From Nitrospirales bacterium (GTDB lineage: Bacteria > Nitrospirota > Nitrospiria > Nitrospirales > UBA8639), in NCBI GenBank assembly GCA_965261755.1, contig OZ253473.1, forward strand, positions 225,175 to 289,174: a stretch of 64,000 bases of DNA, in the 5' to 3' direction. Positions within the stretch are counted from its first letter, which is position 1. Each line of letters begins with the position of its first letter. This document shows, piece after piece, positions 9,831-21,810 of this stretch. The position numbers and the translations under genes were made by a program. The notes below the pieces were generated by a model. It was not told the origin of the DNA. It worked only from the letters and a program-made list of their open reading frames with translations, and made no database searches.

Positions 9831-11603
9831 ATGAGTCAATTCTCTCGCCTGTTCCCGTTTGTCCGTCCTTATCTTTCTCAAATGGCATTGGCCGGTGTCC
9901 TGATCATGGGCGTGGCGGCCCTCAACCTGACGCTGCTCAAACTCGGCGGCACGCTGTGGGACCTCATCACGGTTCAACGTGACGTTGAACGCATGACGCA
10001 AACGATCCTGCTGTTTCTGGTGATCGCCATCATCCAAAGCACCTTGACCATGGGCCAGAGCTATCTGACCACCCGCCTGTCGCAGTTGGTCATCGCGGAT
10101 TTCCGCACCCACCTGTTTCGACATCTGCAAACCCTGTCTCTCAGCTTTTTTGCCAAACGGCGTACGGGGGAAATTCTCTCACGGCTCATGAACGACGTGG
10201 GCGTGATCCAGAACCTGGTGACCGAAACGCCCATCGATTCCGCCAAACAACTGGTGACGCTGATTGGCGGCCTTGCGTTCCTGTTGTTCATGAATTGGAA
10301 ACTCTGCCTGCTGATCGTCTTGTTGCTTCCCCTCCTGGTCTTGGTGGCGCGGTTGTTCGGAAAGCGGTTGAAATCTCTCTCCACGCAAATACAGGATCAC
10401 ACCGCCGCTCTTTCCACGCTCATTGAGGAAGTGATTTCAGGTATTCGAGTCGTGAAATCCTTTGTCCGGACGGACCGGGAGGAAGGACGATTCGGCGTCG
10501 CGGTCGACTCGTTGGTTGCCGGGACACTCCGCCGCGCCAAAATCCTTTCCGTGTTTATCCCCGTCATCACCCTCCTGACGTTCATGATGGCCGGAGTGGT
10601 CCTGTGGTACGGCGGCAAGCAAGTCATCGACGGGGCCATGACACCCGGGGACCTCCTGGCCTTCGTGTTGTTTGCAGGAATTTTAATCGGTCCGTTTGGA
10701 GCCGCGGCACGAATCTTTTCCCAAATGAAGGAGGGACAGGGTGCCCTGGAACGCGTCTTCGAGTTGCTCGACACCGCGCCGGAAGTGACGGACGCTCCGC
10801 AAGCCCACGCGTTGCGCGACGTTCAAGGCCACATCAAATTTTCACGCGTAAGTTTTGCGTATGACCCGCGTCACCCGGTGCTCACCGATCTCTCCTTCGA
10901 AGTGCATCCGGGCGAACTCGTGGCATTGGTGGGTCCGACCGGTTCGGGGAAAAGTACGATCGCGAACCTGTTGCACCGGTTTTATGATCCGACGGAAGGA
11001 TCCGTCACGATTGACCACCAGGACCTGCGGGACGTGCAATTGGCCGGCTTGTATCAACAGCTTGCCATCGTGCCTCAAGAAACCGTCCTGTTCGGGGATA
11101 CGATCCTGGAAAACATTCGATACGGACGAGAAAACGCATCGGAAGAGGACATTATGGCAGCGAGCCGGGCGGCTCATGCCCATGACTTCATTGCGTCGCT
11201 GCCGGATGGGTACACCACGCTGGTCGGGGAAAAAGGCGTCAATCTTTCGGGTGGTCAACGGCAACGCATTGCGATTGCCCGCGCCATCCTCAAAAATCCC
11301 CGGCTCTTAATTCTGGACGAAGCGACCTCGGCGCTGGATTCCGAATCCGAAATGCTGGTCCAACGTGCATTACAACGACTCATGACGGGACGGACGACCG
11401 TGGTCATCGCACACCGCCTCACGACCATTCAGGAAGCCGACCGGATTTTTGTTCTTAGCAAGGGCAGGATCGTCGAAGAAGGCACGCATACGGCATTGAT
11501 GCAACGGGACGGCCTGTATCGCCACCTGTATACGCTTCGGATGGTGGAATGGGAAACGCCGGCGTCTGTTGATACGTCAAGAGAACAATCCAGGCATGAC
11601 TAA
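9831..11603 (+). CDS. ABC transporter, fused permease/ATP-binding protein (MsbA/ABCB exporter type)
   Basis: Six-TM N-terminal half, then Walker A GPTGSGKST, signature LSGGQRQRIAIARA, Walker B LLILDEATSALD and H-loop VIAHRL. Confidence 0.9.
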   Translation: MSQFSRLFPFVRPYLSQMALAGVLIMGVAALNLTLLKLGGTLWDLITVQRDVERMTQTILLFLVIAIIQSTLTMGQSYLTTRLSQLVIADFRTHLFRHLQTLSLSFFAKRRTGEILSRLMNDVGVIQNLVTETPIDSAKQLVTLIGGLAFLLFMNWKLCLLIVLLLPLLVLVARLFGKRLKSLSTQIQDHTAALSTLIEEVISGIRVVKSFVRTDREEGRFGVAVDSLVAGTLRRAKILSVFIPVITLLTFMMAGVVLWYGGKQVIDGAMTPGDLLAFVLFAGILIGPFGAAARIFSQMKEGQGALERVFELLDTAPEVTDAPQAHALRDVQGHIKFSRVSFAYDPRHPVLTDLSFEVHPGELVALVGPTGSGKSTIANLLHRFYDPTEGSVTIDHQDLRDVQLAGLYQQLAIVPQETVLFGDTILENIRYGRENASEEDIMAASRAAHAHDFIASLPDGYTTLVGEKGVNLSGGQRQRIAIARAILKNPRLLILDEATSALDSESEMLVQRALQRLMTGRTTVVIAHRLTTIQEADRIFVLSKGRIVEEGTHTALMQRDGLYRHLYTLRMVEWETPASVDTSREQSRHD

Positions 11604-11649: not shown

Positions 11650-12264
11650 TTATGTTATCCTGGCAAAAATAACCTTCAACCTGTTCTCTACGCCCTGTCG
11701 CTCGACTTCGATCGAGAGAAATGGGTAGCGCTGAGCCAAAAAATTCATGGTGATGTCACCGTCAGCGAGATTCACAAGAAAATCGCACCTTTCCTGAACC
11801 AATCTATCGTCGGCGTTCAATTGCAAAATGTTGATGGTTGAATTGACCTTCTTGCTTAACTCCTGACCGAGTCCATCTCCTGGACGAATGAGACAACTGG
11901 GCAAATCCAAGACGAACCAGCCGATTTGGACTGTGAAGGGATCCACAATTTCCTCCGTATTGCCTTTCCGCACGTTAATCTTCTGCCGTGCAAGCCGGTA
12001 GTTGTCCCATTCGTAAGCCAAATACGGATATTTCGTTTTCGGGAGAAAATGGTCCACGGAGCCCGTGTCTAATAAACGCAGTGTCGTGTATGCACAACAA
12101 CATAAATATGCTTTGTGAAGACTTTTGGCAGCCCTTGACCAGTAGTTATGTTTCTTAAAGTCTTTGTCTGATGGGTTGCGATTTCCCCTGAGAAACGTTA
12201 GCCCAGGTTGCCGCACCCGAGCGTCGAACTCCGGGTACTCAGGCTGGGGGATCACGGGAATCAT
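11650..12264 (-). CDS. PtuB/TIGR02646-like HNH-family protein with a degenerate zinc-cysteine set
   Basis: CAYTTLRLLDTGSVDHFLPKTKYPYLAYEWDNYRLARQKINVRKGN aligns by eye to the PtuB-type C.YCE...(I/V)(D/E)H..P....P.L...W.NL...C..CN..K core. The first ATG (12264) overlaps the ATPase stop as ATGA. The 12300 start in the track is a TTG. Confidence 0.6.
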   Translation of the reverse strand: MIPVIPQPEYPEFDARVRQPGLTFLRGNRNPSDKDFKKHNYWSRAAKSLHKAYLCCCAYTTLRLLDTGSVDHFLPKTKYPYLAYEWDNYRLARQKINVRKGNTEEIVDPFTVQIGWFVLDLPSCLIRPGDGLGQELSKKVNSTINILQLNADDRLVQERCDFLVNLADGDITMNFLAQRYPFLSIEVERQGVENRLKVIFARIT

Positions 12265-14132
12265 AAATCGACGCCAAACCGCTCGGCAAAATACGTCCAA
12301 CGAGGCCAGAATGGATCGTCTGGAGCCAGCAATTGACGAAGCTTATCGGAGATCTCCTGCACCTTGGAAGCATCAGAAGTCGGGTTGAGTTGAATAGTTT
12401 TAGCCGTTTCAATCGCTTTTTCTGCATCACGGGAGCGAGCATGTTTCAAGCCGAAAACGGGAGAAGTCAGCCACGCCGAGATGTCTCCGTACTTTTGGAA
12501 CTCAAGAGGTTCCAGCACCACGTTTGATTCCTCAAGCGCGAGGTGGTACAAAACGTCCGCTTCCTCTGAAAAGTCGGCCTCGATAGATGCTAGAACCATC
12601 GGCGAATGAGTTGACGCAATGATCTGTATTTCAAGTTCCTCGCTGAGAAGCTTTCCGACACTCATCAAAGCCGGCAACATTGTCCTTTGCCAACGTGGAT
12701 GAAGATGAGCTTCCATCTCGTCCACCACGATGACCATCTTTCGAAGTGGTTCTTCGCCAATTTGCCGGGCTGCAACGATGTGCTCCTGCCAAGACCAGAT
12801 GACCAGATAAGCTAAAAGCAGAACGTGTTGAACGCCCGCTGATGAAAATATGATCGGCACGTCTCCGTAGGCGTGCTTTATTGTCGGAATCTGCCGTGGA
12901 TCGCCGGGTATACGCGTCGGCTCGCCTGGTGTGATAATGCCAAGGTCTTCCGGCGAGAGGCGTTCTAATACTCGGGCAAGCATGCGAAAAGCATGTTGTT
13001 CACGAGAAAGTTGCCAGTTGACCCAGTCTCGAACGAGACCTTCAATCTCCCCCGGCTTGCCGTCCCAAACTTCATTGCTGGTAAAAAAACTAACGTGAGA
13101 TTGATCGCCCACTTGTAGCTTCTCTCGCGTCTCGTCGGAAACCGCAAAAGAGCTATCGACTTTAGCATATATACAAAGCGCCGCTACAGATGGTCTTTCA
13201 TTTTGATGAATCCAAGAATGGTTTCCCCAATCGAATGAACTCGAACCAGACAATATTTGGTTTGTAGTACTACGAATCTCAAATTTTATGGTTGGGTTTA
13301 CTTCTTTCAGCCATACAAACGGAAAGGCTGGCTTGTCCACCCATTTTCCTGTAATCGCCCACCAAGCCACATCCAGTAGAAACGATTTACCTAAGCCGTT
13401 GTCACCAGCGATTAGGGTCAGCCTTTCGCCGAACTGAAGATCAAAGCTCTTCGCTGGCCCGATATCTCTTAGATGCAGCGCTGCAAGCGTTCCTCCCATC
13501 TCACCTGGAGCATCGGGAGGTGGCTCAACACCATAAGCGACGGCTTTCAGATCTGCAGGTTTATCATCGAAAAGTGTTTGGGCCGACAATTCTGAAGGCT
13601 TTTCTTTCGTGAAAAGATTGGTTCTTTCATCTGACGTTATATGATAGCTCTTCAAAAATTGCTTGATGACTGAGTTCAGCGAATCTTCGTCTTCCCATAC
13701 ATCATTCTTGCCAATCCAGATTGCAATTGCCGTGAGTGGAATGAATTTGTGGCCAGAAGAAGCTTTAACGGCCTGACTTATCTTCTCGACATAGTCTCCC
13801 TTGAAACCCCAACTTTGACCGCGTTTTTGGTGAATGAAGACCGGGCCAAACGTTTGAGTGTTAATAGCCTGTAGACCTGCCGAAGGGTATTTTTGCACGA
13901 CCCAAGGTTTGGTACTTTTGAAAGGTTGAAAATAAAATTTACTTTGTGGGTCTAATCGATGATGTGTTTTAAGATGTTCTTTTGTTAATGTATCCAGTTT
14001 CATGTGGACGGTTTCTTCGACTGGCAAACTCGCTTTCTTGCAAGCCAGGAAAGTGATGCCAAGGAAAGGGTGAGATCCTTTCCTTAGTTGACTAATTGCC
14101 CACAATACAGCGTTGCTCGACAAATACTTCAA
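12261..14132 (-). CDS. ABC-type (AAA_15/AAA_21-like, PtuA-like) ATPase with an unrecognised N-terminal domain of about 235 aa
   Basis: Walker A LIAGDNGLGKSF, signature-like FSSAGVQHVLLLAYL, Walker B MVIVVDEMEAHLHP and H-loop IASTHSP. The TTG start at 14132 is preceded by GAGG (14144-14141) and overlaps the methyltransferase stop (TTGA). Confidence 0.8.
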   Translation of the reverse strand: MKYLSSNAVLWAISQLRKGSHPFLGITFLACKKASLPVEETVHMKLDTLTKEHLKTHHRLDPQSKFYFQPFKSTKPWVVQKYPSAGLQAINTQTFGPVFIHQKRGQSWGFKGDYVEKISQAVKASSGHKFIPLTAIAIWIGKNDVWEDEDSLNSVIKQFLKSYHITSDERTNLFTKEKPSELSAQTLFDDKPADLKAVAYGVEPPPDAPGEMGGTLAALHLRDIGPAKSFDLQFGERLTLIAGDNGLGKSFLLDVAWWAITGKWVDKPAFPFVWLKEVNPTIKFEIRSTTNQILSGSSSFDWGNHSWIHQNERPSVAALCIYAKVDSSFAVSDETREKLQVGDQSHVSFFTSNEVWDGKPGEIEGLVRDWVNWQLSREQHAFRMLARVLERLSPEDLGIITPGEPTRIPGDPRQIPTIKHAYGDVPIIFSSAGVQHVLLLAYLVIWSWQEHIVAARQIGEEPLRKMVIVVDEMEAHLHPRWQRTMLPALMSVGKLLSEELEIQIIASTHSPMVLASIEADFSEEADVLYHLALEESNVVLEPLEFQKYGDISAWLTSPVFGLKHARSRDAEKAIETAKTIQLNPTSDASKVQEISDKLRQLLAPDDPFWPRWTYFAERFGVDL

Positions 14133-15004
14133 ACAATCGACCTCAGCGATTCAACCGCATAGAGACAGAACTCCCGGTTCAGATCAATTCCAATGCCCGA
14201 CCGGCCGGTTGAGATCGCGACTCTGACCGTTGTGCCACTTCCCACGAAAGGATCAAGAACAATACCCCCTTCAAGGCATCCAATTTCCAAACAGCGCTCG
14301 ACCAACTCGTCGGGAAATGGGGCCGTGTCCAGTCCATCGGTCGGCTTTGGCTGCGCCGCAATTGTCCACAAATCTTCATCGATCTTTTTGTCTATGAGTG
14401 GTTTCTTGTGGAAATAATATCGTCTGTTCTTCGCGAGGATGAACACATATTCATAGCTGCGTCCCGGACGATCCCGAACGGACTCAGGCAGCCGGTTCTT
14501 CCGGTGCCAGATCACCGAACTGCGGATGGCCCAACCGGACGATGCCAATCCAAGCCCAACGCGCCACGGAACGCCGATCAATGATTTCCGTTGCAGGTTG
14601 ATGCCAAGCCCACCGCTCTTGTCGACGGCTCGAAGGCCAAAACGTCTTTTCTTGCTCTTGCCGTCCTGACCATGAGACTCACCCTTACCGGAGTAGAACG
14701 TATCGCCGATATTTAGGAAAGCCAAGCCTTCGGACTTCAACACACGCCTCACCTCGCCCATAACGCTAGTTAAGACATCGACATACTCCCCGATGCTATC
14801 CTCCTGTCCGATCTGCCCTTTGACACCATAGTCACGAAGCCAGAAATAGGGCGGCGACGTGACGACGCAATCGACGCTCTCCGAAGGCATTTGCTGCAAC
14901 ACGTCAAGCGCCAGGCCGTAATAGATCGCCCAAGATGCACCTGAATGGGCTCGACCCCTCCAAGCATTTCCAGAATCGAAGTTTTCGATATCAAAAATGT
15001 CCAT
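14129..15004 (-). CDS. Beta-class DNA methyltransferase (N4-cytosine or N6-adenine; the SPPY motif favours N4C)
   Basis: Motif IV VVTSPPYFWLRDYG lies N-terminal and motif I VLDPFVGSGTT lies C-terminal, which is the beta permutation (N6_N4_Mtase family). Confidence 0.9.
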   Translation of the reverse strand: MDIFDIENFDSGNAWRGRAHSGASWAIYYGLALDVLQQMPSESVDCVVTSPPYFWLRDYGVKGQIGQEDSIGEYVDVLTSVMGEVRRVLKSEGLAFLNIGDTFYSGKGESHGQDGKSKKRRFGLRAVDKSGGLGINLQRKSLIGVPWRVGLGLASSGWAIRSSVIWHRKNRLPESVRDRPGRSYEYVFILAKNRRYYFHKKPLIDKKIDEDLWTIAAQPKPTDGLDTAPFPDELVERCLEIGCLEGGIVLDPFVGSGTTVRVAISTGRSGIGIDLNREFCLYAVESLRSIV

Positions 15005-16245: not shown

Positions 16246-16914
16246 ATGGGAAATGGGATAAACCAACAGGAACAGGCCATGAACCTCGAAAATCTCGAGC
16301 GGGTCTATACGAATTACTCTTCGGTCTATGACCAAACCTTCGGGAAGGCCTTTGATCAATCGCGTAAATCGGCGGTGAAAGGCCTTCCCGTCTCTCCCGA
16401 TGATCACGTGCTGGAAGTCGGCGTCGGCACGGGTATGGCCTTGCCCCTGTATCCAACCCACTGTCGAATCGTGGGTATCGACCTCTCGGAAGGCATGCTG
16501 AAAAAGGCCGAGGAGCGCATTGCCAAGCACGGCCTCGAGCACGTCACGCTCCAGCGTATGGATGCGGGCCAAATGTCCTTCCCGGACGATACGTTCGACG
16601 TGGTCATGGCTGCCTACGTCGTGACCGCTGTCCCGGATTATCGGCAGGTCGTGTCGGAGATGATTCGCGTCTGCCGCCCCGGCGGTCGCATTGTCATGCT
16701 GAACCACTTCAGCAACGGCAATAAATTCATCGCCGCCGTCGAGAAACTGATTTCGCCCATCTGCCAGCGGATAGGGTTCCGCACGGATTTGTCCTTGGAT
16801 CGCGTGCTAGATGGCACGCCCCTCCAGGTCACGAAACAAGAAAAGATGGATCCTTTCCAGTATTGGTACCTGGTGGAATGCATGAACGCGAAAAACGGTT
16901 ATTCCCATTCGTAA
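16246..16914 (+). CDS. Class I SAM-dependent methyltransferase
   Basis: Motif I VLEVGVGTGMAL, later DTFDVVMAAYV and RVCRPGGRIVM (Methyltransf_11/25-like). Confidence 0.8.
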   Translation: MGNGINQQEQAMNLENLERVYTNYSSVYDQTFGKAFDQSRKSAVKGLPVSPDDHVLEVGVGTGMALPLYPTHCRIVGIDLSEGMLKKAEERIAKHGLEHVTLQRMDAGQMSFPDDTFDVVMAAYVVTAVPDYRQVVSEMIRVCRPGGRIVMLNHFSNGNKFIAAVEKLISPICQRIGFRTDLSLDRVLDGTPLQVTKQEKMDPFQYWYLVECMNAKNGYSHS

Positions 16915-16952
16915 TCGCGACGTCCTGATCCCCTCCTCAATCCGCCGTCACC

Positions 16953-17630
16953 ATGAAGCAGGCCCTGTGCCTCCAACACGTTCCCTTTGAAGGCCCCGGC
17001 GCGTTTCGGCAGGCGCTAGAGAAACGGCAGTATCAACTCGACTCGCTGCTGGTCCCTCAACGGGAACTCCCCGCCACGCCTCCGGATTTCCTCTTGGTCA
17101 TGGGAGGGCCCATGTCCGTGAATGATTCCGACCCCTGGATTGAAAAAGAACAACAGTTCATTCGACACACGATCGAGGCGGGCATTCCGGTGTTAGGCGT
17201 ATGCCTGGGCTCTCAATTCATGGCAAAGGCCTTGGGCGGACAGGTCCATCCCGGCCCTCGATTGGAAATCGGGCCGACCTTGGTCACGCGCACCGTCGAA
17301 GAAGACGCCGACGCTGTTTTTGGAACCTTTCCCCGCCAGTTCACGGTGTTTGAATGGCACGGCGAAGGGCTCACCCTGCCACCGGGGGCGTGCGTGCTCG
17401 CCTCGTCCGAATCCTATCCGGTTCAAGCCTTTCGATATGGCGACCGCGCCTACGGGCTCCTGTTTCATTTGGAATTGGAAGTCGAAGGCGTCGAAGCCCT
17501 CTGCCGTGAATGTCTCACCGACGTGCAACGGGCACAAACCACGACAGAAGCCTTGTTGGAATCAGCAAGGCACGTTCTTCCTGAATGCCATCGACTCGCC
17601 GACCGCCTCATCGCCCACCTGGCTAGCTAA
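16953..17630 (+). CDS. Class I glutamine amidotransferase-like protein
   Basis: Nucleophile elbow PVLGVCLGSQ and FHLE (His/Glu), a GATase1 pattern. The length of 225 aa fits a stand-alone GATase. Confidence 0.75.
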   Translation: MKQALCLQHVPFEGPGAFRQALEKRQYQLDSLLVPQRELPATPPDFLLVMGGPMSVNDSDPWIEKEQQFIRHTIEAGIPVLGVCLGSQFMAKALGGQVHPGPRLEIGPTLVTRTVEEDADAVFGTFPRQFTVFEWHGEGLTLPPGACVLASSESYPVQAFRYGDRAYGLLFHLELEVEGVEALCRECLTDVQRAQTTTEALLESARHVLPECHRLADRLIAHLAS

Positions 17631-17693
17631 TCAGATGTTGCCGGCGGTGGATCGAAAAACACCAGTCGTTGCCATTGCCAAAAACCGTCCAAA

Positions 17694-17939
17694 AGCAATG
17701 TGCAAAAAATGCACATTGCAAATTCAGACAAGCCTGTAAATTTTTATTCCCTTGACGTCATTTTAGCAGTGGGTTATCGGGCGAATTCTGCCAAGGCCAT
17801 TGCATTCCGCAAGTGGGCGACAAATACCTTGAGACAACACCTCCTTGAAGGCTACACCATCAACAAAAAACGCATTGCCCTGAATTACGAGACATTCTTG
17901 AGGGCTGTTGGCGATGTCAAAAAGACAATGATTTCCTAA
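17694..17939 (+). pseudogene. rhuM: RhuM-family protein remnant, central fragment only
   Basis: VNFYSLDVILAVGYRANSAKAIAFRKWATNTLRQHLLEGYTINKKR matches the conserved RhuM core (YNLD.IISVGYRV.S..GT.FR.WAT..L..Y...G). The N- and C-terminal parts are missing. Confidence 0.65.
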
Positions 17940-17961
17940 CGTATGTCAATACTTGCCCAAG

Positions 17962-17979
17962 GCAAATAGGCCTATTTGC
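17962..17979. promoter_or_regulatory. Perfect 18-bp palindrome GCAAATAGG|CCTATTTGC
   Basis: Read directly from the sequence. It sits between the rhuM remnant and the first ORF of the TIR islet, followed by an A-run and with no T-run. It is an operator or hairpin candidate only. Confidence 0.3.
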
Positions 17980-18010
17980 AAAAAAGGTTGAAGGTGCTCT
18001 AATTGAAAGA

Positions 18011-18193
18011 ATGGCGACTTGGGTTGATGTCTTTCAGTTGTGTGAAATGTTTATGTCACAATCAGTAGAAGAACAGCCACGGGTTGCCGAAATACTAAAT
18101 GCAGTGAAAGGTAAAATAAAAACTTTAAGGACACTCGCTGAAAAACATCATGTGCAAAAATGCGGGTTGATGCGAAAACCGCTGACAGAGTAA
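18011..18193 (+). CDS. Hypothetical 60-aa protein (doubtful)
   Basis: ORF only, with a weak RBS and no recognisable motif. It lies in the AT-rich islet. Confidence 0.25.
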   Translation: MATWVDVFQLCEMFMSQSVEEQPRVAEILNAVKGKIKTLRTLAEKHHVQKCGLMRKPLTE

Positions 18194-18241
18194 TGGAGGG
18201 TGCAAGCATAGTGAGGTTTAGATAAAAGACAGGATCAAATC

Positions 18242-18664
18242 ATGGACGGCACAGAAAAAGTCGTAAAGCATCTGGAAATGACCCAAGCCGTTATCAACCG
18301 TTTGGGAAGCAACTCTTTCCTATTAAAAGGTTGGAGCATGACAATCATTGTCACTGCAATGGTTTTAATAGCCAGACATGACATACAACACCCATGTCTT
18401 ATCCTGTCCCTTATTATCCCCATCCTCGGATTTTGGACTCTGGATGGCTACTTTCTCTCGCAGGAAAGGTTGTTTCGGAAAATCTACGATGAGATCAGAC
18501 GTCAATCCGACACCGATTTTAAAATGGACGTGATGAAGCATAAAAATACGCCAAAATGCAGTTGGGCATCCGCCCTGTTTTCTCGCACGCTTAACATTTT
18601 CTATTTGGCAGAGGTTGGATTGACTGTTTTTGTGTTTTTCATAATTTCGGTGGGGGCATTATGA
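18242..18664 (+). CDS. Small 3-TM membrane protein, candidate effector partner of the TIR-like protein (possibly SLATT-like)
   Basis: Predicted TM segments are WSMTIIVTAMVLIA, CLILSLIIPILGFWTLDGYF and LNIFYLAEVGLTVFVFFIISVGAL, with a charged loop in between. Its stop overlaps the next gene's ATG (ATGA at 18661-18664). Confidence 0.6.
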   Translation: MDGTEKVVKHLEMTQAVINRLGSNSFLLKGWSMTIIVTAMVLIARHDIQHPCLILSLIIPILGFWTLDGYFLSQERLFRKIYDEIRRQSDTDFKMDVMKHKNTPKCSWASALFSRTLNIFYLAEVGLTVFVFFIISVGAL

Positions 18665-19251
18665 GAAGAGTATTTTTTAGTTTTGATTGGGACGACGTGT
18701 GGCGAGTCAACCAGGTCCGCAACAGTTGGGTTACAAAAGGCAACCATGAAATAGCAGGCTTTGTCGATGCGGCAGAGATAGAAAAGGTCAAGAACCAAAC
18801 GGACAAAGCAATCCAAAAATGGATAGATGAGCAGATGAGAGGAACATCTGTTACTTGTATCTTGATCGGCAGCAAAACAGATGAATGTAAATGGGTGAAA
18901 TACGAGATCGAAAAGAGCATTGAGAAAAAAAATGGCCTCTTGGGAGTCCTTATTCACAACTTAAAAGATGTTGCTGGCAAAACAGATGAAAGGGGATCTA
19001 ATCCCCTGGGCGATTACAATGAGGATGATTTTGGCGAGACAGTTAAAAGAGCTCTGCTTGGAGGGGGCGCTGGGTGGGGACTTGCAAGATTTGTTTTTCC
19101 TCAACTTGTCATTCCAGCCACTATTTTTGGAGCTGCTCTTGCCCTCCTAGCGTCAAATGACGATTACAAGATTTATGATTGGGATGAAGATGGCGGATAT
19201 AAAAACTTGGGCGACTGGATAGAAAAAGCCGCTGAACAAGTGGGTAGATAA
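18661..19251 (+). CDS. TIR-like domain protein (ThsB/DUF1863 type) with a C-terminal TM helix
   Basis: RVFFSFDWDDVWRVNQVRNSW and TSVTCILIGSKTDECKWVKYEIEKSIEKKNGLLGVLIH match the DUF1863/ThsB pattern, including the W..YEI glutamate. The C-terminal FVFPQLVIPATIFGAALALLA is hydrophobic. Confidence 0.7.
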   Translation: MRRVFFSFDWDDVWRVNQVRNSWVTKGNHEIAGFVDAAEIEKVKNQTDKAIQKWIDEQMRGTSVTCILIGSKTDECKWVKYEIEKSIEKKNGLLGVLIHNLKDVAGKTDERGSNPLGDYNEDDFGETVKRALLGGGAGWGLARFVFPQLVIPATIFGAALALLASNDDYKIYDWDEDGGYKNLGDWIEKAAEQVGR

Positions 19252-19267
19252 AGAGCACTGCCACAAA

Positions 19268-19966
19268 TTGGAAAATCTATCTGTGAAAACGACAAGCCCC
19301 TCACATCCGCGCAACCTGTATATGTTTGTGGATGAAGGCGGAAATTTCGACTTTTCCGAAAAAGGAACGGCTTTCTTTACCCTGACTTGTGTAGCAATAG
19401 AGCGTCCTTTCAGGATTTACCAACAAATTGATAACTACAAATACGATTTAATTGAACATGACTTTCCTTTGGAATTTTTTCACTGCGCCGAAGACAACAA
19501 GCACATCAGATCCAAAATGCTGAGTCTTATCAAAAAGTATCTATCAAAACTTCAAATTGACAGTTTGATTGTTGAGAAGCATAAGACTTCCCCTTCTCTT
19601 CAGGACCCAAAAGAATTCTATCCGCGTATGCTGGGCTACCTATTAGCCTATGTTTTGAGAGATTATCGATCCGGTCAATTCAAGAAAATAGTGATCATCA
19701 CAGACAGCATGCCGGAAGCGAGCAAACGCAAAGCAATGGAAAAATCAACCAAAGCGATTCTGGCAACAATGTTGCCCACAGGTACGAACTATACCATCCT
19801 GCATCATGCAGCCAAGTCTCACTACGGTCTCCAGATTGTTGACTATTGTAACTGGAGTATTTTCAGAAAATGGGAGCGTAGTGATAATGAACACTATGGC
19901 ATAATCGAATCGGCTATACGAAGCGAATTTGACATCTTTCTGACTGGAAAAAGAAGGTATTACTGA
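19268..19966 (+). CDS. DUF3800-family protein
   Basis: N-terminal LYMFVDEGGNFDF and C-terminal HYGLQIVDYCNWSI match the DUF3800 D-E-G...Q.aD pattern. The start is uncertain (TTG 19268, GTG 19283 or ATG 19322). Confidence 0.65.
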   Translation: MENLSVKTTSPSHPRNLYMFVDEGGNFDFSEKGTAFFTLTCVAIERPFRIYQQIDNYKYDLIEHDFPLEFFHCAEDNKHIRSKMLSLIKKYLSKLQIDSLIVEKHKTSPSLQDPKEFYPRMLGYLLAYVLRDYRSGQFKKIVIITDSMPEASKRKAMEKSTKAILATMLPTGTNYTILHHAAKSHYGLQIVDYCNWSIFRKWERSDNEHYGIIESAIRSEFDIFLTGKRRYY

Positions 19967-20100
19967 TGGGAGGGATAGAAACGACCTCCCCAACTACTCT
20001 GTTGCCAGAGAGAGCCCCTTGGGCTCTTTCATCGGGGAGGTACCTTTGTTGTAATCCTAAAACGGCAAAAAACAAAAGTCAAACAAGCGTTGCTCGCAAT

Positions 20101-20460
20101 ATCTGCACTTCCATAAAAGATAAAAACGACCTTCAACACCTGCTTGGCTATGAGCAATGGAAGAACTTTAAAACAGTTATTGACAAGACCAGAACTACCT
20201 GTGAGGTGGCGGGACATAATGTTTCCAATCATTTTGCCGACGTCGGCAAAACGATAAAAATGCCCAAAGGAGCGGAAAAGACCATAGATGATTTTATGCT
20301 CACCGGCTACACCTGCTACCTCATCGCCCAGAACGGCGACCTCGTAATATCACCAATAACGAAAACGTCCGGAATACTTTACTTGAAAGAGACATCAGAC
20401 CGGGAATTTTGCCGCCCGGCGAAGATGTGAAAAAAGTGGAATCGTCAACTCGACCGTCGC
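20101..20460 (+). pseudogene. dinD: DNA-damage-inducible protein D (DinD) remnant with an internal deletion/frameshift
   Basis: LLGYEQWKNFKTVIDKTRTTCEVAGHNVSNHFADV...FMLTGYTCYLIAQNGD matches the DinD core. After IAQNGD the conserved tail (NENVRNTLLERDIRPGILPPGEDVKKVE) appears only in another frame. The N-terminus is absent. Confidence 0.6.
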
Positions 20461-20568
20461 GGGCCGTTCCTTGATTATCGTCCTGCCGGTACAGTAACGT
20501 GAACCCTTCGTGTTTTTGAAAACGAAACTCTGAAAACTTGTTCGATCATTGAAGAAGGAGTGGCAGGA

Positions 20569-21744
20569 ATGAGTGGTGTGCCCATCACCTATGCTGAACG
20601 CATCAAGACGTTACCCCCGTATCTCTTTGCGGCCATTGACGAGATGAAGCAAGAGGCCATCGCTCGCGGGGTCAATATCATCAACCTGGGAATCGGCGAT
20701 CCCGACCTGCCCACACCCGAGCCTATCCTGCAACGCATGCAAAAGGCGGTGACCGATCCGCAGCATCATCAATATCCTTCTTCGAGCGGGATGTTGTCGT
20801 TTCGCACCGCGGTCGCCGGCTGGTACAAGCGACGCTTCAACGTGACCGTGGACCCCAAGTCCGAGGTAGTCACCTTAATCGGGTCAAAGGAGGGCATCGG
20901 CCACGTCCCCTTGGCCTTTATCGACCCGGGCGACGTCGTCCTCGTCCCAAGCCCAGGGTATCCCGTGTATCCGGTGGCTACCAGCTTTGCCGGCGGCACC
21001 GCCCATGAGATGCCCCTGTTGAAACAAAATGGGTTCCTTCCCGACCTGGATGCGATTCCCCCGGACGTGGCCCGAAAAGCCAAACTGATGTTTTTGAATT
21101 CGCCGAACAATCCCACGTCGGTCATTGCGGACACGGCATTTTTCGCCCGCGTGATTGCGTTTGCGAAAGAGCATCACGTCATCGTGTGCCACGATGCGGC
21201 GTATTCGGAAATTTTCTATGACGGCCACCGGCCGTCGAGTTTTCTGGAGGCGGAAGGCGCCATGGACGTGGGGATCGAGTTTCACTCATTGTCCAAGACG
21301 TTCAACATGACGGGCTGGCGGCTCGGGTTTGCCGTGGGCCGTGCCGAAGTGATTGCAGGGTTGAGCCAGATCAAAAGCAATTTGGATTCGGGACAATTTC
21401 AAGCCGTTCAAGAAGCCGGGATCACAGCCTTGGAGTCCGACGATCGACTCACCGCCGGGCTCCGGGGCATCTACCAGGAACGCCGTGACGTGTTGGTCGC
21501 GGGCTTGAGAAATCTCGGGCTCGAGTTTGAGACGCCCTCGGCGACGTTCTACGTCTGGATCGAGGTGCCTCAAGGCTATACCTCTGCGTCCTTTACGGCA
21601 CACCTGTTGGAAAAGGCCGGGATCGTGACCACTCCGGGAAACGGGTTCGGGGCTCCGGGCGAAGGCTACATTCGCATGGCCCTCACCACGACGAAAGAGC
21701 GATTAGCCGAAGCCGTGGATCGGCTCAAACAAATCGGGTGGTAA
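20569..21744 (+). CDS. dapL: LL-diaminopimelate aminotransferase (class I/II aminotransferase)
   Basis: RIKTLPPYLFAAIDEMK...INLGIGDPDLPTP and the PLP lysine context SLSKTFNMTGWRLGF. ATG 20569 follows GGAG and is preferred over GTG 20560. Confidence 0.7.
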   Translation: MSGVPITYAERIKTLPPYLFAAIDEMKQEAIARGVNIINLGIGDPDLPTPEPILQRMQKAVTDPQHHQYPSSSGMLSFRTAVAGWYKRRFNVTVDPKSEVVTLIGSKEGIGHVPLAFIDPGDVVLVPSPGYPVYPVATSFAGGTAHEMPLLKQNGFLPDLDAIPPDVARKAKLMFLNSPNNPTSVIADTAFFARVIAFAKEHHVIVCHDAAYSEIFYDGHRPSSFLEAEGAMDVGIEFHSLSKTFNMTGWRLGFAVGRAEVIAGLSQIKSNLDSGQFQAVQEAGITALESDDRLTAGLRGIYQERRDVLVAGLRNLGLEFETPSATFYVWIEVPQGYTSASFTAHLLEKAGIVTTPGNGFGAPGEGYIRMALTTTKERLAEAVDRLKQIGW

Positions 21745-21810
21745 CAACTCCTCCCTCATCGCGCGTGACGCCACGACGACGGAAAGCGGGGACGTGAATA
21801 CGGTGAAAAG

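Follow-up and report, generated by a model that had tools for sequence, protein, structure and literature searches.

A translationally coupled thsF-thsB gene pair of a Nitrospirales sponge symbiont: a probable type V Thoeris system whose TIR protein carries a hydrophobic insert

Type V Thoeris consists of two proteins: ThsB, a TIR-domain protein, and ThsF, an effector with three transmembrane (TM) helices that has been labelled DUF2270 (Yirmiya et al., bioRxiv 10.64898/2025.12.03.692087; below, the type V preprint). Two type V systems from Bacillus were validated in 2025, the signal of one of them being 3′-cyclic ADP-ribose (3′cADPR), and for ThsF a heptameric channel with basic pockets was predicted by AlphaFold 3 (type V preprint). 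The subject of this analysis is a pair of overlapping genes, referred to as thsF and thsB, in a 64,000-nucleotide stretch of DNA from a Nitrospirales bacterium (GenBank assembly GCA_965261755.1, contig OZ253473.1, positions 225,175 to 289,174; this whole stretch is “the window”, and coordinates without a locus number refer to it). The pair is most probably (at a probability of about 0.8) a translationally coupled type V Thoeris anti-phage system. An earlier note on this DNA had regarded the pairing as unknown, which it is not: it was catalogued in 2023 in PADLOC-DB v2 as the candidate system PDC-M50, both models of which match the two adjacent genes over their full length, and type V Thoeris was validated experimentally in 2025. 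A literature search for “PDC-M50” found no papers. Existing knowledge suffices to explain the locus, and no new category is needed for it.

The features of the gene pair are as follows:
18242 to 18664, + strand: thsF, putative 140-amino-acid membrane effector (open reading frame; PADLOC PDC-M50A; hydropathy; helices of the AlphaFold2 (AF2) model)
18661 to 19251, + strand: thsB, 196-amino-acid ThsB-type TIR protein, putative sensor and signal synthase (Pfam, PADLOC, Foldseek, phmmer)
18661 to 18664, + strand: start of thsB overlapping the stop of thsF in ATGA, translational coupling (sequence)
18904 to 18906, + strand: codon of E82, the putative catalytic glutamate, in WVKYEIEKS (invariance; alignment with ThsB of Bacillus cereus MSX-D12)
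19021 to 19161, + strand: insertion in ThsB, residues 121–167, predicted membrane hairpin (homologue alignment, hydropathy, AF2)

The two genes lie next to each other on one strand, and the ATG of thsB shares the sequence ATGA with the TGA of thsF; both open reading frames, of 140 and 196 codons, and their overlap are present as the earlier note had described them. The identical four-nucleotide overlap of thsF and thsB is found in four other loci (L002, L008, L016 and L097). The ratio of non-synonymous to synonymous substitution (dN/dS) is 0.18–0.65 for thsF and thsB, and both genes are under purifying selection. The possibility that the locus is a decayed remnant is ruled out by the intact motifs together with these ratios. 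A scan for promoters and terminators found sites no more frequently than in shuffled sequence.

The identity of the 196-amino-acid protein was addressed at the levels of sequence and of predicted structure. The protein matches the Pfam family ThsB_TIR (PF08937) with an E-value of 1.6e-23 over residues 5–102 (score 83.4; cutoff 21.2 bits), the PADLOC model ThsB with 1.6e-58 and the PADLOC model PDC-M50B with 5.7e-56 over its full length, and a phmmer search against the PDB leads to ThsB of B. cereus MSX-D12 (BcThsB) with 7e-33. The AF2 prediction, based on 56 homologues, confidently models residues 1–120 and 168–196 as a TIR-like core (predicted TM-score 0.72), for which the top PDB matches in Foldseek are the ThsB structures 9b7d, 6lhy and 8wcf (~1e-10 to 3e-11). 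Judged by sequence and by model, the protein is a ThsB-type TIR, and both the assignment to the DUF1863/ThsB type and the glutamate in the context W.KYEIEKS, as put forward in the earlier note, are borne out. This glutamate, E82, is invariant in the 56 homologues and aligns with the glutamate of the YEI motif of BcThsB, which is reported to be the catalytic residue, E85 (Ofir et al. 2021). The window protein has, as its sequence indicates, the TIR domain with catalytic glutamate that is characteristic of type V.

The 140-amino-acid protein matches the PADLOC model PDC-M50A over its full length (8.7e-39); searches of Pfam, NCBIfam and PDB sequences gave nothing above threshold. Its hydrophobicity (Kyte-Doolittle, 19-residue window) has three peaks, at approximately residues 31–45, 52–72 and 108–137, with maxima of 1.9, 1.74 and 2.33, and the AF2 monomer consists of three long helices (3–46, 51–87 and 108–139), so the three TM helices previously predicted for it, and known from the type V effector, are recovered by both approaches. 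Lysine and arginine number four before the first TM helix, zero in the loop 46–51 and nine in the region 73–107, a distribution that fits a topology in which the N-terminus is inside and the two conserved polar helices are cytoplasmic. These would be an amphipathic helix at the N-terminus and a basic cytoplasmic helix at 73–107, both predicted. The family to which the protein belongs is large, with 666 close matches and 4302 representatives (counted at 50% identity, E ≤ 1e-3). Across 132 diverse members, the residues H10, L11, Q15, R20, F26, K29, W31, F64, W65, L67, D68, L72, E75, R79, Y82, M95 and S114 are conserved in at least 90%, and among these H10, Q15, R20, K29, E75, R79 and Y82 are compatible, by sequence, with basic pockets between protomers. 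Weak matches to DUF3278, 8xMP and Ac76 recur among the 132 relatives (a literature search for “8xMP” found unrelated papers only), and a scan of viral contigs with the ThsF alignment yielded no relatives. In the protein P0360, a complete ThsF module follows C-terminally on a SLOG domain (LD_cluster2, 1.7e-15); P0312 has a similar SLOG-ThsF appearance by eye, with no Pfam match. Such a fusion of SLOG and ThsF is what one would predict for a membrane output domain under the control of a nucleotide sensor, and it supports an effector role. One and the same membrane module also serves behind SLOG sensor domains.

The type V preprint gives the sequences of TIR proteins and no sequences of effectors, and the families were therefore connected through the TIRs. 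In Table S1, the TIR of row IMG 2683723276 (“DUF2270 - Type V”) is identical to a TIR encoded on the Klebsiella plasmid NZ_CP024543.1 (L085, 2943–3806). The sole possible partner of that TIR is a gene for 141 amino acids located 16 nucleotides upstream, the rest of the surroundings being insertion sequence (IS) elements, and this partner matches hidden Markov models of the window ThsF family with 6.8e-21 and 2.8e-31. The TIR of the validated type V system of Bacillus sp. 1NLA3E is 67% identical to the TIR of the Priestia plasmid NZ_CP069403.1, and the gene immediately after the latter TIR encodes the top-scoring plasmid homologue of the window ThsF (47% identity, 3e-23). Furthermore, three TIRs that are 95%, 86% and 75% identical to that of another “Type V” row in the same table, IMG 2506601867, are each encoded just downstream of a member of the ThsF family; the window pair and one of these pairs have the same gene order and are 33% identical in ThsF (4e-22) and 45% identical in ThsB (1e-55). 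Finally, TIRs that are 40–47% identical to ThsB of B. thuringiensis DAR 81934 adjoin members of the ThsF family on plasmids of Terribacillus and Klebsiella. The motifs of the window ThsB itself were not found in the available part of Table S1. Homology with the ThsF/DUF2270 effector of the preprint is thus provided by the matches of the Klebsiella and Priestia partners, and by these sequence relationships the window protein belongs to the type V effector family, ThsF. The functional reading of the earlier note, i.e., a membrane effector that responds to a TIR-made signal without any ThsA, holds and matches the published description of type V.

The pair recurs as neighbours in other genomes. 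A scan with thsF, limited to one genome per species, gave 80 closest loci (L001–L080), almost all of them in metagenome-assembled genomes (MAGs) of sponge symbionts; the hosts are Poribacteria, Binatia, Nitrospirales, Latescibacteria, Gammaproteobacteria, Opitutales, Bdellovibrionales and others. At 40 of these 80 loci, thsF has one to three TIR genes, belonging to different classes, on its own strand and no more than 300 nucleotides away, and on plasmids thsF adjoins a TIR gene in all four loci examined. At the DNA level, thsF (18231–18664) is 65–80% identical across phyla, nearly all the hosts being sponge-symbiont MAGs, and this identity therefore suggests that thsF has spread horizontally and is actively exchanged within the sponge microbiome.

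At locus L023 (5001–7964), a single thsF precedes three distinct ThsB-type TIR genes (a short form of 146 amino acids, a ThsB resembling HIT type XI and the long form with the hydrophobic insert) and then a DUF3800 gene, an array of several sensors with one effector. The pair thsF-thsB, or thsF alone, is nested in type I restriction-modification operons at L088–L090, L092/L093, L097/L098, L099, L074 and L079, and at L097 the HsdS protein (647 amino acids) is fused to a ThsB_TIR domain (PF01420, 1.3e-25; PF08937, 1.1e-08). The contexts of thsF without a TIR gene (e.g., L004, L006, L007, L011–L014, L022, L024 and approximately 30 others) are defence islands containing TIR-TPR proteins, Schlafen/AlbA_2, AAA_21, HD, HsdR or nucleoside 2-deoxyribosyltransferase. 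At L024 (5374–5934), the gene for the last of these, an enzyme with a TIR-like fold, is directly downstream of thsF.

A number of points weigh against the assignment to type V. At the other 40 of the 80 closest loci, there is no detectable TIR gene within 300 nucleotides of thsF. For the ThsF monomer, AF2 gives a model of low confidence, with a predicted local distance difference test (pLDDT) value of 62, which is too low for a fold search. The Pfam family DUF2270 (PF10028) is not matched by the window ThsF (E ≤ 1) or by its homologues from Klebsiella, Priestia, Terribacillus and Vibrio (E ≤ 0.1), and only 14 of the 132 diverse relatives have matches to it, all sub-threshold and the best at 0.0043. 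The identity of the window ThsF family with ThsF of B. thuringiensis DAR 81934 would run through homologues of the TIR. In addition, of the two validated type V systems one did not respond to the addition of 3′cADPR, and a type V representative from Vibrio cholerae gave no defence in Escherichia coli (type V preprint); therefore, both messenger and activity are uncertain for the present clade. With regard to Pfam, “DUF2270” appears to be a loose label that the preprint applied at the level of clusters, so that the missing matches lower the likelihood of membership in Pfam DUF2270, not that of membership in ThsF. As the 4302 representatives at 50% identity indicate, the “DUF2270/ThsF” family extends far beyond what the Pfam model recognises.

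At this locus, the family identities of both proteins, their conserved adjacency and coupling, the intact catalytic motif and the purifying selection are established. A mechanism in keeping with them would begin with the activation of ThsB, a TIR enzyme, upon phage infection. By means of E82, it would turn NAD+ into a messenger derived from ADP-ribose, most probably an isomer of cyclic ADP-ribose such as 3′cADPR, which is thought probable because the window ThsB is close to the ThsB proteins of types I and V. ThsF, with its three TM helices, would assemble as a ring in the inner membrane and bind the messenger in basic pockets formed by H10, Q15, R20 and K29 of the N-terminal helix together with E75, R79 and Y82 after the second TM helix. 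It would then compromise the membrane, and the infected cell would be stopped before the phage cycle is complete. That the window pair uses such a messenger, forms an oligomeric pore and brings about an abortive outcome would follow by analogy with the published type V systems.

Homologues of ThsB fall into two length classes, one of 161–166 amino acids and one of about 195. At the same site, the shorter forms have a short polar loop (PPxNF...YPCC) and the longer forms, about 40 of the homologues, have an insert of 47 residues with the consensus ALxGGGxGWGLA-[R/K]-LVFPQLAIPATIxGAALALL; the clade with this consensus comprises Nitrospirales, SUP05/Thioglobus and other marine symbionts. In the window protein, the conserved Gly-rich hydrophobic motif within the insertion, ALLGGGAGWGLA-R-FVFPQLVIPATIFGAALALLA, spans residues 131–164. 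Its Kyte-Doolittle maximum over 19 residues is 1.98 and its dN/dS is 0.17–0.63, and in 41 long forms P147 is conserved in 100%, L141 in 93%, F146 in 90% and G135 in 88%. The AF2 model has a pLDDT of approximately 40 for the insert and is confident in its flanks; after the insert, a conserved strand (170–173) and helix (179–193) pack back into the TIR core. Residues 168–196 are conserved whether or not a form has the insert. The earlier note had described ThsB as ending in a hydrophobic helix that anchors it to the membrane. Neither statement stands: the hydrophobic segment is internal, being residues 131–164 of 196 and followed by a strand and a helix, and both its ends must be on the same side of the membrane. 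The insert begins and ends in one globular domain and a single pass through the membrane is therefore topologically excluded; the corresponding candidate, a single-pass TM anchor, was rejected on the conservation of residues 168–196 in both length classes and their packing into the TIR core. BcThsB carries a polar subdomain of about 50 residues at the same position, and on this alignment the site is therefore a variable region of ThsB.

A helical hairpin or a monotopic insertion is a reasonable inference for the structure of this segment from its sequence, and as a trait of this clade it may tether ThsB to the membrane beside ThsF. No description of the insert was found, and the type V preprint does not mention it. 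The predicted hydrophobic hairpin in the sensor is the sole feature of the locus that has not been described. A wider proposal, which can be offered only tentatively, is that the ThsB of this clade has had its variable subdomain replaced by a glycine-zipper hairpin, making the sensor monotopic, so that phage sensing or synthesis of the messenger takes place next to the ThsF channel; the DUF3800 protein might then act as a third component. To our knowledge, no membrane-tethered Thoeris sensor has been described before, and the hydrophobic-insert ThsB offers a testable handle on where in the cell Thoeris sensors act.

The gene pair is carried by a small island of low GC content. The features of the island and of the neighbouring operon are as follows:
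17636 to 20450, strand not applicable: low-GC island carrying the module (2.8 kb; ~42% versus ~58% GC) (composition, Pfam, synteny)
17700 to 17939, strand not stated: truncated RhuM fragment (Pfam)
19325 to 19966, + strand: DUF3800 gene, possible accessory third gene (Pfam PF12686, 2.1e-10; PADLOC DUF3800_VII, 5.3e-10)
19966 to 20430, strand not stated: truncated Bro-N fragment (Pfam)
14129 to 15004, − strand: type II methyltransferase of the Septu-like operon
12261 to 14132, − strand: PtuA (PADLOC, 3e-241)
11650 to 12300, − strand: PtuB (PADLOC, 2.5e-64)

The content of the island is limited to the RhuM fragment, an open reading frame of 60 amino acids, thsF, thsB, the DUF3800 gene and the Bro-N fragment. 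Its flanks (16500–17635 and 20451–21745) are housekeeping sequence and are syntenic at 88–91% with the Nitrospirales MAGs L002 (OZ242346.1) and L003 (Nitrospira sp. bin75), in both of which the same island is present at 88–90% identity. The host is therefore very probably a member of the Nitrospirales that lives with sponges. A repeat search found no direct repeats flanking the island. The segment 17636–18155 (~520 nucleotides), with the RhuM fragment and the 60-amino-acid reading frame, is missing from L002 and L003 and is therefore probably what a mobile element left behind next to the island. In Nitrospira sp. bin75, the orthologue of thsB (L003, 5315–6009) is split into two reading frames, either by a frameshift or by an assembly error. 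The Septu-like operon (11650–15004, − strand), whose genes overlap, is located 3 kb upstream of the island, and a reading frame at 9831–11603 (+ strand) matches PADLOC mad3/mad8 (1.4e-36).

The DUF3800 reading frame opens at a TTG at 19268, its likely start being the ATG at 19325 (MFVDEGGNFDF). A DUF3800 gene follows long-form thsB in L002, L003, L016 and L023, with 84–90% amino acid identity, and also in L095/L096 (60%), where thsF is absent; its dN/dS of 0.17–0.27 indicates purifying selection. In an Rfam scan of the island, a chance match to a miRNA (E = 0.77) was the only result; the DUF3800 gene is not preceded by any retron-type RNA, and neither a retron reverse transcriptase nor a retron non-coding RNA is present in the window. 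The DUF3800 gene may be accessory to the pair or may simply lie next to it.

Four other explanations of the locus have to be weighed against a type V Thoeris of two genes acting through a diffusible messenger, and two of them arise from the features just described. The DUF3800 protein could be a true component, either in a unit thsF-thsB-DUF3800 or in a pair with ThsB, as a second effector or a regulator. In keeping with this, its gene lies 17–130 nucleotides downstream of long-form thsB at six loci in two lineages, including L095/L096 without thsF, it is under purifying selection, and proteins of this family are, by the PADLOC model name DUF3800_VII, accessory proteins of type VII retrons. 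However, L097 and L099, two more distant loci with long-form thsB, lack the gene, in the window it is separated from thsB by a gap of 73 nucleotides without coupling, and DUF3800 genes are common in defence islands as independent genes, all of which makes its membership doubtful. A direct gating of ThsF by ThsB, in which the hairpin would enter the membrane and contact the helices of ThsF, so that protein contact would act instead of or besides a diffusible nucleotide, would make sense of an insert that is conserved and under purifying selection, whose Gly-rich sequence has small-xxx-small spacing, that replaces the variable subdomain of BcThsB, and that occurs in ThsB proteins encoded downstream of thsF in the window, L002, L016, L097 and L099. 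Such gating is nevertheless unlikely, given a catalytic glutamate and a TIR core that are fully conserved, the short-form or unrelated TIRs without a hydrophobic insert that make up most partners of ThsF, and the long-form ThsB of L095/L096, which has no thsF.

The remaining two explanations concern the division of labour between the proteins and the family of the smaller one. The TIR could itself be the killer, with ThsB depleting NAD+ as the effector and the membrane protein serving as sensor or anchor; depletion of NAD+ is the activity of some bacterial TIRs of CBASS, Pycsar and pAgo systems (type V preprint). The window TIR, however, is of the ThsB class and closest to signal-producing ThsB proteins, type V TIRs make 3′cADPR (type V preprint), and the ThsF module occurs as a C-terminal output domain behind SLOG sensor domains; this exchange of roles is very improbable. 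The suggestion of the earlier note that the small protein is a SLATT-like pore former has in its favour a functional analogy, SLATT effectors being paired with TIRs in type VII Thoeris. It did not survive comparison with Pfam: the window ThsF has no SLATT match (E ≤ 1), no SLATT family is among the 25 Pfam families matched by most of the 132 relatives, and the protein has three TM helices rather than two, so that membership in the SLATT family is scarcely credible. Thus, a type V system with ThsB as the source of the signal and ThsF as the membrane effector remains the preferred reading.

How does the locus compare with the systems that are already known? Both window proteins match PDC-M50A and PDC-M50B of PADLOC over their full length, whereas the PDC-M50B model has 162 positions, i.e., the short form, and the window ThsB is about 35 residues longer. 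In type I Thoeris, BcThsB (PDB 6LHY, 9B7D) is the closest solved structure and sequence (7e-33), sharing with the window ThsB the TIR core, the YEI glutamate and a subdomain inserted before the last strand and helix. That subdomain is polar in BcThsB and hydrophobic and Gly-rich in the window protein, and the partner of BcThsB is the SIR2-SLOG protein ThsA, which is absent from the window locus. In agreement with the earlier note, which had listed neither a SIR2/SLOG nor a TM-Macro ThsA, no SIR2/SLOG or Macro protein was found in the 2.8-kb low-GC island (17636–20450), and the locus is therefore of neither type I nor type II. With type II (TM-Macro) and type VII (SLATT, ThsH) Thoeris, the locus shares the activation of a membrane-disrupting effector by a TIR signal; in contrast, the effectors of those types have a Macro or a SLATT domain, and neither is detectable in the window ThsF.

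A candidate Thoeris effector called “SLOG and 4TM” gave no defence in E. coli (Table S2, type V preprint). P0360 and P0312, which appear as SLOG fused to a complete ThsF module, may belong to this class, in which case the membrane module would be common to both architectures; the window ThsF, in contrast, stands alone. The closest likeness is to type V Thoeris: both are two-gene TIR operons with a three-TM effector of approximately 135–145 amino acids that has no recognisable sensor domain. The differences are that the validated systems are from Bacillus, whereas the window host is a Nitrospirales sponge symbiont; that the window ThsB is in the PF08937 class closest to ThsB of type I; and that it has the hydrophobic Gly-rich insert and a linked DUF3800 gene. 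This locus and its relatives extend type V Thoeris to Nitrospirota and to a wide range of phyla among the sponge symbionts.

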